A stretch of DNA of 8,948 bases from assembly GCF_006345805.1 (NCBI RefSeq), contig NW_021828271.1, positions 1-8,948 on the forward strand, in the 5' to 3' direction. Made by a program: the position numbers and the translations under genes. Of the stretch, positions 1,511 through 8,283 are shown one piece after another. Position 1 is the first letter of the stretch, and the number at the start of each line of letters is the position of its first letter. Source of the stretch: Octopus sinensis. Taxonomy: Eukaryota. The notes below the pieces were generated by a model. That model was not told where the DNA came from and did no database searches. It saw only the letters and a list, made by a program, of their open reading frames with translations.

Positions 1511-1853
1511 CATCCGGTGAGTGCTGTTGTACAACATGACCTTAAAATATCACTTGCAAACTGGACAGCTAATAGTGGTAGAAGAATATCGATAGTAGAT
1601 GATGATCTTCAGCAAGTATTGCGCACAGCACTTCAAAATACCGACTAAATAACTACCTTGCCAGTGCTCTATTGATAAAATGTTGGCTGATATTTATAAT
1701 AGCAAAAGAGAAAGTGTTAGAGAAGCAGTGAAAAATTCAAATGCAATTGCACTAACATCTGATTTTTGGACATCCCTTGATAATGAAAGTTATTGCGGAA
1801 TCACCAGCCATTCGATTGCAGATGACTGGAATTTTAGAGTTAAAGAATGCTGA
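1511..1853 (+). pseudogene. hAT transposase fragment (DNA-binding region and first catalytic Asp)
   Basis: HPVSAVVQHDLKISLANWTANSGRRISIVDDDLQQVLRTALQNTD*, then a frameshift to LPCQCSIDKMLADIYNSKRESVREAVKNSNAIALTSDFWTSLDNESYCGITSHSIADDWNF. This matches the hAT motif ALTxDxWTS..SYxxxTxHxI..W (Asp at 1761). The rest of the catalytic domain is missing. Confidence 0.9.
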
Positions 1854-3003: not shown

Positions 3004-4247
3004 TTGCGTCATCCCTAAATAATGCAATTTTAATACTTTTCTTTTTTTAATCGGAAATACACTCTCCTTCATTTTCTCCAATGCTCTTCCATCTATCTAG
3101 TAGACTTGAAAAGCTCTTCTTCCAAAATTCCCTTGTACGTGACGAAAAATACTCCTCTTGTTCTGACCTCGTCTACAAAATTTATATTTTTTCCATCCAA
3201 ATACTTTTAAAGATTGCGGAATAAATGATAATGAAATGGAGCAATGTCCGGCAAATATGGTGGGTAGGGAATCGCTTCCCATTCAAACTGCTCTAACCTT
3301 TAGAATCTCATGCTGTATGTGGCCGAGCATTATCTTGATGGAAGAACATCTTTCGTCTTGAAACCAAACATGGTCGTTTTTCTTCTAGCGTTGACTTAAG
3401 CCGCTCAAGCTGCTTGCAGAAGATGTTTGTTATTGTTTGGTTTGGCTTTGAAACTTTCGAAGTGGACTAAACCTTTCATATCCCACCATACAGATACCAA
3501 CAACTTACATGGGGGAAGACCTTTTATAGGCTGGGTTGCCTGTGTTTCTCCATTCCCTACCCACTGTCTTCGGCGCCTGACATCTTTATAGAAAACCCAT
3601 TTCTCGTTACCAGTCACTATTCGCTCCAAAAAAGAATCATTCGTGTGACGTGACAGCAAAGAAAAGCACACATTCACTTTCTGCGCACGATTAGACTGGG
3701 AAAGTTTGTGAGGAACACATTGACCCAATTTGCTGACTTTTCCGATGGCACGCAGGTGTCGATTTATTGTTGAATGACCAAATCCAAACTTCTCAACTAG
3801 TTCGTCAATAGTTACGATGGTATTTTGCTCCTTCAGGATTTGCAGAACGTCCTCGTCGAACTCTACAGATCTTCCAGGACGAGGCTAGTCTTTCAAGGTA
3901 TAGTTTCTAGCTCGAAATTTCTGGAGCCACCGTTGACTCCACACTGACTTATGCTTATTGTTCAATACCATGTACTGCATTAATATTCCTCGCACTTCCC
4001 GTTGCGTTGTTTATTGAACTCATAAAGCAAAATATGCCGAATATGCTCCTTTGTCACCTCCATTATAGCTTTGAAAAAATGACGGTTAAAATCGAACAGC
4101 ACTCTTCAAAATTTGCACTAAGAATAAGTACAAGTTAAAATTAATACCTGCTTTTATAGCAAGTTGATGCAAGTAATTTATCCCATCCCTCTCCGACTTT
4201 TAGTTCATGCAATTGAAAAAAACCGCATTCTCTATGGGATGACCCAA
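3004..4247 (-). mobile_element. Near full-length inactive Tc1/mariner (mariner-type) transposon, ~1.24 kb
   Basis: Imperfect ~29-bp TIRs: TTGCGTCATCCCTAAATAATGCAATTTT (3004-3031) versus TTGGGTCATCCCATAGAGAATGCGGTTTT (reverse complement of 4219-4247). TA-rich flanks, with TA at 4248-4249. Transposase remnant inside. Confidence 0.95.
3047..4063 (-). pseudogene. Mariner transposase pseudogene
   Basis: Starts MEVTKEHIRHILLYEFNK. Motifs: CVPHKL (WVPHEL-like), IVTGNEKWVFY, SVWWD, FFHQDNARPHTA, PPYLPDIAPFHYHLF. Ends RWKSIGENEGECISD*. First and third catalytic Asp are mutated (D>N, D>H), and there are several stops and frameshifts. Confidence 0.95.
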
Positions 4248-6755: not shown

Positions 6756-7056
6756 GTTTGTTCCTTCTCGAGCTATACCTGGCTCATACGAGCCGGTTTC
6801 CCGGTTTCTTTGGCGTATTGGTTCCCCACCTGGACGGGACGCCAGTCCGACGCAGGTGAGCTGTAAGATGCATGAGGAAAGAGTGTGAGAAAGTTGTGGC
6901 AATGAGTCAGCAGAAGTTCGCCATTACCTTCTGCTGGAGCCTCGTGGAGCTTAGGTGTTTCGCTCATAAACACACACATCGCCCGGTCTGAGACTCGAAC
7001 CCGCGATCCCTCGACCGCGAGTCCACTGCTTTAACCACTAGGCCATGTGTCTCCAC
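6756..7056 (-). mobile_element. Apparently full-length tRNA-derived SINE (~300 bp) with intact Pol III boxes
   Basis: A box TGGCCTAGTGG (7045-7035) and B box GGTTCGAGTCT (7001-6991). Internal 9-bp hairpin CAGCAGAAG/CTTCTGCTG (6908-6936), body motif GGACTGGCGTCCCGTCCAGG, short AAC-type tail. CpGs are retained. Confidence 0.88.
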
Positions 7057-7530: not shown

Positions 7531-7642
7531 ATATATATATAGATATATATATATATATATATATCTATATATATATATATATATATATATGTAATATATT
7601 ATATATATGTATTAGATATATATATATCTTCTATATATCTAT
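7530..7642. repeat. Degenerate (TA)n microsatellite
   Basis: Direct inspection. Confidence 0.95.
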
Positions 7643-8198
7643 GTCAGGTCACTTTCGAGTGCTACTGGTAACATGTAACCCAGTACAACCTGTTGCATGG
7701 TCGGGTCGTCGGCGACTAAACCGGCAACCCCACCAAGCTTGCTTGGTATGGAAGGTGTTTATTGGACACGCTGTGGGATGAAAAACAAAACCCGTCAATG
7801 GGCGGAGGAACTCTTGAGAGTCGACGGCCAGCCAAGAAATGTCTTAAGGCTGTATCATGCGCGGGGACATAGAAATAATCGGACTGAATACCCGACCACA
7901 CGGTTAAACCATTGGGAGTGAAGGACTCCTAGACTTTGTTAGGGCATCCTTCTAGGATAAGGTAACTCAGGTAACTGGGATAACTTCGACATAAAACCTG
8001 CGGCTCTCAGTGGTTACCGATGATGTTGACTTGTTCTTCTTTTCGGATTATGGTTGCTGTTGCTTAGTGAGAGGGATTGACTCAGTGCACAGCCTTTCCT
8101 CACTTTAAAAGTAATCTTCTTGCACAGGCATTGCACGATAACAACATTGATTAAGCTTCGTGCAATGACCATACTCGATAACGAGGGGGCAGCCACCA
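7643..8198 (+). mobile_element. Non-coding, non-autonomous RTE-LINE-derived element (5'UTR-like body plus short tail)
   Basis: GC-richer ~555-bp island between (TA)n and a (TATC)n tail. GGGCATCCTTCTAGGATAAGGTAACTC..AAACC (7942-7998) resembles, from memory, the conserved RTE 5'UTR motif GGCAACC..CTAGGAGAAGGAAAACTC..AAACC. Many hairpins and no RT/endonuclease ORF. Confidence 0.6.
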
Positions 8199-8200
8199 TA

Positions 8201-8283
<83 letters not shown>

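Follow-up and report, generated by a model that had tools for sequence, protein, structure and literature searches.

The window, which is the whole 8,948-nt stretch of Octopus sinensis contig NW_021828271.1 that was analysed, contains a short LINE-derived element and several other features. A decayed DNA transposon at about 770-2140 comprises a BED zinc finger (998-1126, + strand, PF02892) and a stretch at 1653-1850 (+ strand) that is presumably hAT-like. A fragment of a mariner-type transposase (PF01359) lies on the - strand at 3405-3884, and a SINE-like copy with a tRNA head was recognised by eye at 6780-7056 (- strand), where ARAGORN predicted no tRNA gene. A palindrome at 2586-2845 has 125-nt arms that are 94% complementary, separated by a 10-nt spacer, and by eye it extends further if gaps are allowed.

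The LINE-derived element spans 7643 to about 8197 on the + strand (555 bp) and is a bipartite, internally deleted, non-autonomous copy. Its first 510 nt (7643-8152) are 92% identical to part of the 5' UTR of a parent LINE represented by two loci (L379, L380), and the remainder (8151-8197) matches the terminal 45-49 nt of the same LINE. The parent, designated family A, is a 4.0-kb LINE with an APE endonuclease and a reverse transcriptase (RT). Bipartite, internally deleted derivatives of RTE elements are a known kind of non-autonomous copy; the window element shares with them the 5' UTR part and the last 45-49 nt, and is unusual only in its head. It is flanked by a likely 10-bp target-site duplication (7633-7642, again at 8198-8207), which is uncertain because of its low complexity; given that duplication, the window copy probably carries no extra leader base.

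An internal 24-mer of family A has 1,210 exact matches in the genome, and the insertions lie mostly in TA/TATG microsatellites. Among the first 30 copies picked by this internal motif, 22 have their first base at G7643 or one position further on, 3 others start within 7 nt, and the remaining 5 between +26 and +50. The original prediction had assigned the locus to the 5' end of an RTE-like element and had named a precise shared start near 7643 as a check. Both points agree with these starts, and the former also with the match of the first 510 nt to the 5' region of a LINE encoding APE and RT. Three of the five truncated copies (L246, L247, L262) begin at 7691-7693, at the 3' strand of the long-range pseudoknot described below, for which either RT stalling or microhomology with the microsatellite may be considered. 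The family is also present in assembled contigs of four presumed-RNA sequencing runs, contigs that show neither starts nor strand.

The head of the element (7642-7699, + strand), an RNA of 57-58 nt, is a candidate for a fold like that of the subclass 1a exoribonuclease-resistant RNAs (xrRNAs), with a three-way junction and two pseudoknots; Rfam searches, fold prediction, covariation and a model built from repeats only bear on this assignment. According to the accessible text of the relevant reports, subclass 1a is characterised by a conserved GU preceding P1 and forming a first pseudoknot (PK1) of at most two pairs with the nucleotides that link P3 to P1 (PMC8917146, PMC7527734), by a junction of a 5-bp P1, a P3 of 4-8 bp and a variable P2 (PMC7749634, PMC7527734), and by a U·A-U triple, by a C left unpaired at the P2/P3 junction, and by a long-range pseudoknot, PK2 (PMC7527734, PMC7749634, PMC8917146). 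PK2 of xrRNAs is given as 2-7 bp in the accessible part of PMC8571300. Every one of these features that is testable in sequence is present at 7642-7699.

The 5' strand S1 (7642-7644, + strand; features after the accessible text of PMC8917146) could form PK1 through the potential pairs U7642-A7687 and G7643-C7686. P1 pairs 7645-7649 with 7688-7692 (5 bp), and the P2 hairpin at 7650-7661 has 4 bp, its length and sequence differing among families. The unpaired C at the P2/P3 junction is C7662, a base that defines the subclass in the accessible text of PMC7527734. P3 (7663-7685) consists of 6 bp (7663-7668 with 7680-7685) closed by an 11-nt loop, from which 7672-7678 can pair with 7693-7699 in a PK2 of up to 7 bp, strongest at 7672-7675 with 7696-7699. 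The bases required for the U·A-U triple (U7644, A7664 and U7684) are in place, and U7644 is predicted to be the third base of the A7664-U7684 pair.

All stem sequences quoted in the original prediction are found at their positions, and its P1-P2-P3 junction coincides with the predicted fold, in which pair probabilities are 0.82-0.91 for P1, 0.66-0.77 for P2 and 0.70-0.93 for P3. The segment 7620-7770 is more stable than expected (z = -2.58), with 1 of 200 shuffles equally stable. The head is followed at 7700-7747 (+ strand) by a module of candidate structure, comprising the GGCGACUAA motif (7711-7719) and a CUUG hairpin, which occurs in families A, B, C and E, is missing in families D and F, and is possibly a translation element. 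Its ACCAAG(CUUG)CUUGGU hairpin at 7732-7747, proposed earlier, is predicted with probability 0.83-0.93. Two further proposals find no place in the pseudoknot-free ensemble: the nested GUCGG/CCGGC and GUCG/CGAC domain has a probability of 0.0, another register being preferred, and so has the alternative GUUGC/GCAAC pairing (7692-7696 with 7724-7728). The letters at 7700-7747 differ from those of the Coremin-type xrRNA, which has a YGAD loop and a CUAC spacer in the accessible text of PMC10321173.

The best Rfam hit in 7600-8220 is RF01415 (Flavivirus_SLIV) at 7638-7709, with 25.8 bits and an E-value of 0.037 against a cut-off of 54.5; RF03547 had no hit in the window. The sub-threshold score is not a defining failure, because genuine flavivirus xrRNA sites at two viral loci (L113, L124) also fall short with 29.7 and 28.1 bits on RF01415. 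A 28-kb scan covering 12 loci of related families gave no hit to an xrRNA model at E <= 10, and a whole-genome search with RF01415 gave no matches among the 64 of 88,671 candidates that were scored. A descriptor of the core with U-A pairs matched 1,414 times in the 2.7-Gb genome, compared with 0 matches for the reversed pattern, and a long-P2 version matched 90 times (control, 2). A version with C-G as the first P3 pair had 0 matches in the genome.

Compared with the subclass 1a RNAs of mosquito-borne flaviviruses (RF01415, RF03547), the letters are identical at most core positions. C-G occupies the inner pair of P1 and the first pair of P3 in the flaviviruses, U-A in the retrotransposon heads. 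In viral sequences the descriptor found 25 loci; 20 of these were scanned, and flavivirus 3' UTR families were identified in 15. A covariance model built from 14 repeat heads only (R1) gave 10-35 bits to the viral pattern sites and recovered 6 additional downstream sites missed by the pattern, of which 5 are SL-IV according to Rfam. With R1, three matches in long viral contigs that are probably due to chance reach 15-16.5 bits, so that the score partly reflects the pattern. The fold is considered very probably to be that of subclass 1a.

Motifs like those of subclass 1a were also seen in a further set of contigs (L109:601-660; L110:601-680 and 948-991; L159, L112, L126, L117), of which the short, RNA-virus-like ones had no flavivirus hit in Rfam. 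One of these motifs lies near the end of a 10.5-kb contig, and L159 has the motif twice, with a weak S-domain coat protein upstream. Except in L112, the first P3 pair of these copies is U-A, as in the retrotransposon heads, and several of the small contigs have one U-A and one C-G at the inner P1 and first P3 pairs. Subclass 1a may thus extend beyond flaviviruses. Other well-formed motifs of this type (L189, L193, L179, L182) occur in metagenome contigs of different make-up, including GC-rich repeats and a possible eukaryotic gene region.

The head opens at least six repeat families. The core-descriptor matches listed fall into families A (that of the window), B, C, D, E, F and G, which differ in P2, P3 and PK2. 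In families A-F the sequence upstream of the motif varies between copies, and the motif is therefore their 5' boundary. Family B is a young LINE of 3.96 kb with Pfam domains PF03372, PF14529 and PF00078 and an (ATT)n tail; its relatives, found in many animals, consist of one protein of about 1,065 aa each. A single ORF with APE and RT, a length of about 4 kb and a short tandem-repeat tail constitute the architecture of RTE-clade LINEs, and on this architecture these LINEs are presumed here to belong to that clade. LINE coding fragments lie downstream of the head in families C, E and F, and the APE and RT of the family D parent (L367) are only about 30% identical to those of family B. The LINE downstream of the family G head in L366 was rejected as its parent, as its start lies 2 kb away, beyond a microsatellite, and it was probably inserted independently. 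A further group, family H (L070, L075, L085, L086), fits the loose pattern but was set aside, since it lies inside another repeat and has no clear PK2.

A metagenome scan yielded at least 117 loci, of which 42 are one repeat family; among the matches listed, 33 loci pass the structure filter, some of them probably by chance. An endonuclease-like gene lies downstream of the head in three metagenome loci (L136, L165, L177). A 5-nt duplication, GTCAG, stands directly 5' of the head in ten loci spread over many families (L064, L076-L078, L160, L177, L234, L243, L370, L377), being three-fold in L177; its length equals that of the leader proposed below.

Covariation was assessed in an alignment of 14 heads, one per family, which were chosen by the analysts with family H left out and aligned by MAFFT without editing, two rows being one column out of register. 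Paired cells made up 87.4%, compared with 82.0% in shuffled alignments (0 of 500 as high) and 27-41% in slid controls. Cells changed on both sides numbered 19, against 8.3 (0 of 500), and the covariation score was 0.197, against 0.105 in shuffles (0 of 500) and 0.026-0.081 in slid controls. Two other measures did not beat the shuffles, namely how many pairs show double changes (7 versus 5.7; 131 of 500) and how many further pair types occur (196 of 500). The PK1 pairs are present as G-C in 14/14 rows, which the pattern imposed, and as U-A in 8/14; in general, to infer conservation from the invariant core would be circular, since the pattern selected it. The informative changes outside the search pattern lie in the two outer P3 pairs, which change on both sides in 4/14 and 3/14 rows, and in four PK2 pairs. 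Double changes affect 4 of the 7 PK2 pairs, the first of which shows five pair types. In P2 of family B, three pairs are swapped on both strands.

The 7-bp pseudoknot between 7672-7678 and 7693-7699 in the original prediction, together with the covariation check proposed for it, is thus upheld mainly for four pairs: across the 14 families both-sided changes occur, and 7672-7675 with 7696-7699 are paired in 13, 11, 11 and 12 of 14 rows, whereas the other three pairs are retained in only 5, 7 and 9. These data bear on the possibility that the flavivirus likeness arose by chance, or is a functionless relic of a captured virus. Such an origin would agree with the low Rfam score and with the chance hits of the loose pattern, for which 95 of 142 loci in large collections fail the structure filter. 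It is nevertheless extremely improbable, given the covariation outside the pattern, the occurrence of the head at the same position in LINE lineages 30% identical to each other, and the absence of any core-descriptor match in 53.7 Mb of shuffled window sequence.

The position at which the element RNA begins was approached through the bases 5' of the head. For family B, the sample comprised 60 of the 80 listed heads and 6 other loci, 62 of these copies having an intact start. A T occupies position -1 in 57/62 family B copies, in 22/22 copies of family A (microsatellite background, 17-19/22) and in 23/42 copies of one metagenome family. Pyrimidines at both -4 and -3 were found in 31/62 family B copies, compared with 5-13 at offsets -20 to -6. 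The target duplication could be resolved in 15 of 52 two-ended family B copies, and the number of extra bases between duplication and head was 0 in two copies, 2 in two, 4 in six, and 1, 3, 5, 6 and 7 in one each (mode 4), microhomology with the target possibly masking the true first base. No copy (0/15) has an untemplated G as the first extra base, and the recurring leaders begin with a pyrimidine. Of the 5'-truncated family B copies used as a control for extra bases, 2/18 were resolved. In family A, 5/54 target duplications could be resolved, with 0, 3, 4, 5 and 8 extra bases.

A tree of 39 full-length family B copies, built from the G onward, was compared with 12 upstream positions. Base -2 follows the tree (8 changes versus 15.1; 0/1000 shuffles), as does base -3 (6 versus 8.7; 3/1000), while none of the other ten positions does, -4 to -12 among them; the RNA that was copied therefore included at least 3 nt 5' of the G, and these bases differ in sequence among sub-lineages. 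Four copies sharing one 5-nt leader group together as a clade, and in a clade of 17 copies the leader of 15 ends in GT. For family A (56 copies) the tree has a star-like shape, with which none of the upstream bases agrees. On viral xrRNAs XRN1 halts 2 nt (PMC13161572) or 5 nt (PMC7749634) upstream of PK1, as described in the accessible portions of these papers, which corresponds to -3 to -6 here. The leader of family B would fit an RNA end a few bases 5' of the fold, at the place where XRN1 stalls on the viral RNAs.

On this sequence evidence, the head, predicted to fold as a subclass 1a xrRNA, likely sets the 5' end of the element by stalling a 5'-to-3' exonuclease, not by cutting itself. Read-through from a host promoter, or location in an intron, would yield a longer transcript, which would acquire a 5' monophosphate when decapped, cleaved or, as a lariat, debranched. 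XRN1 or XRN2 would then strip the host part and halt about 3-6 nt 5' of the fold, and the trimmed, uncapped RNA would be stable and be translated cap-independently. Finally, target-primed reverse transcription would copy the trimmed RNA together with its short flank, and new copies would therefore carry 0-5 nt of donor flank between duplication and head. The whole sequence of events, from trimming to retrotransposition, is considered reasonably probable.

The main rival to exonuclease trimming holds that transcription begins a few bases 5' of the head, from an internal Pol II promoter, and that the xrRNA serves as a guard only, protecting the RNA after decapping. A leader of 2-5 nt would suit a start site at a fixed distance, and in the accessible text of PMC4758252 a different head common to several LINEs is suggested to act as a promoter, the 77-bp head of ingi/L1Tc being cited as both promoter and ribozyme. 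Family B, for its part, has its first in-frame Met at +602, preceded by 10 ATGs, which argue against cap-dependent scanning. Purines are the usual start bases of Pol II, and a G is frequently left behind by capped LINE RNA; the pyrimidine-first leaders and the extra G in 0/15 copies thus speak against this explanation, which is regarded as unlikely.

The same upstream ATGs require a non-scanning route, as would be provided if the ring-like fold were kept for ribosome recruitment or for binding the element's own protein, with the 5' end set in another way. One viral xrRNA also affects ribosomes, according to the accessible text of PMC10321173. Such a role would leave unexplained both the ends of the copies a few bases 5' of the fold and the retention of the PK1 and triple bases, and it is distinctly unlikely.

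A self-cleaving ribozyme freeing the element from a read-through transcript was the central proposal of the original prediction. It would account for the precise 5' ends and has precedents in the twister variants of Perere-3 (RTE) and the HDV-like ribozyme of R2 (accessible text of PMC8501958); a CUAA motif also sits 3' of the hairpin at 7713-7720. The Rfam searches proposed with it for twister and HDV matched neither family, the best hit being RF01415, and twister, twister-sister, pistol, hatchet, hammerhead and every other ribozyme family remained without a hit at E <= 10 in the window and the 12 related-family loci. An HDV-like core is a nested double pseudoknot (P1-P2-P3-P1.1-P4) with a pyrimidine loop of 7-8 nt and a catalytic C; a descriptor of it, run without a positive control, had 0 hits in 7600-7900. 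Twister and hammerhead core motifs are absent in 7600-7800. Moreover, the module with the CUAA motif is absent in families D and F, the leader varies between sub-lineages, and the conserved bases are those of xrRNAs. An undescribed ribozyme is accordingly very improbable. What stands of the earlier proposal is that the element begins exactly with a conserved RNA containing a pseudoknot, which is probably concerned with 5'-end processing; the evidence favours a subclass 1a xrRNA over the ribozyme label.

A broader proposal, which could go either way on the sequences at hand, is that a portable subclass 1a xrRNA using the host XRN1/XRN2 represents a third route to the LINE 5' end besides internal promoters and ribozymes and provides the first cellular xrRNAs, the module having moved between retrotransposons and RNA viruses and the flavivirus element perhaps sharing its origin with the retrotransposon head. 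A 2021 review describes xrRNAs as characterised in viruses only and raises the question whether eukaryotic genomes contain them (PMC8374639, section 7, within the accessible text). In the literature covered, which lies outside subscription journals and Repbase, no retrotransposon or cellular RNA was reported to carry an xrRNA. The candidate described here has over a thousand genomic copies and natural covariation. If the proposal is true, retrotransposon RNA could be made with neither promoter nor ribozyme, flavivirus xrRNA would have a route of origin or exchange, and non-viral RNA stabilisers would become available for mRNA, guide-RNA and retrotransposon tools.

Among known systems, the flavivirus RNAs of subclass 1a are the closest in structure; they lie in a viral 3' UTR, whereas the present head forms the 5' end of a genomic retrotransposon, its product would be a coding, retrotransposing RNA, and its resistance is predicted. 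LP-SINE, Nimb-17_LMi, I-3_DR and RTE-9_CPB have in common a 5' domain of about 70 nt on unrelated LINEs, which the authors call a promoter in the accessible text of PMC4758252. As judged by eye from Fig. S2 of its supplement, this head has a stem of CAGGU with ACCUG, contains a loop that could base-pair with a UUGCA further 3', and shares the GGCGACUAA motif; it is not of subclass 1a, because the sequence shown is without the GUCAGG start, P2, junction C and P3. The letters at 7693-7721 resemble the 3' half of the LP-SINE/Nimb-17 head in the same figure, and the two heads may be related modules. The closest parallels in position are the ribozymes of Perere-3 and R2, which likewise place a structured RNA at the exact 5' end, adjoining the target duplication, and for which the same release of an uncapped RNA from a host transcript is proposed. 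They differ in having a catalytic core, of which none was found here; in the octopus element the end would instead be made by a host exonuclease, leaving a short variable leader.
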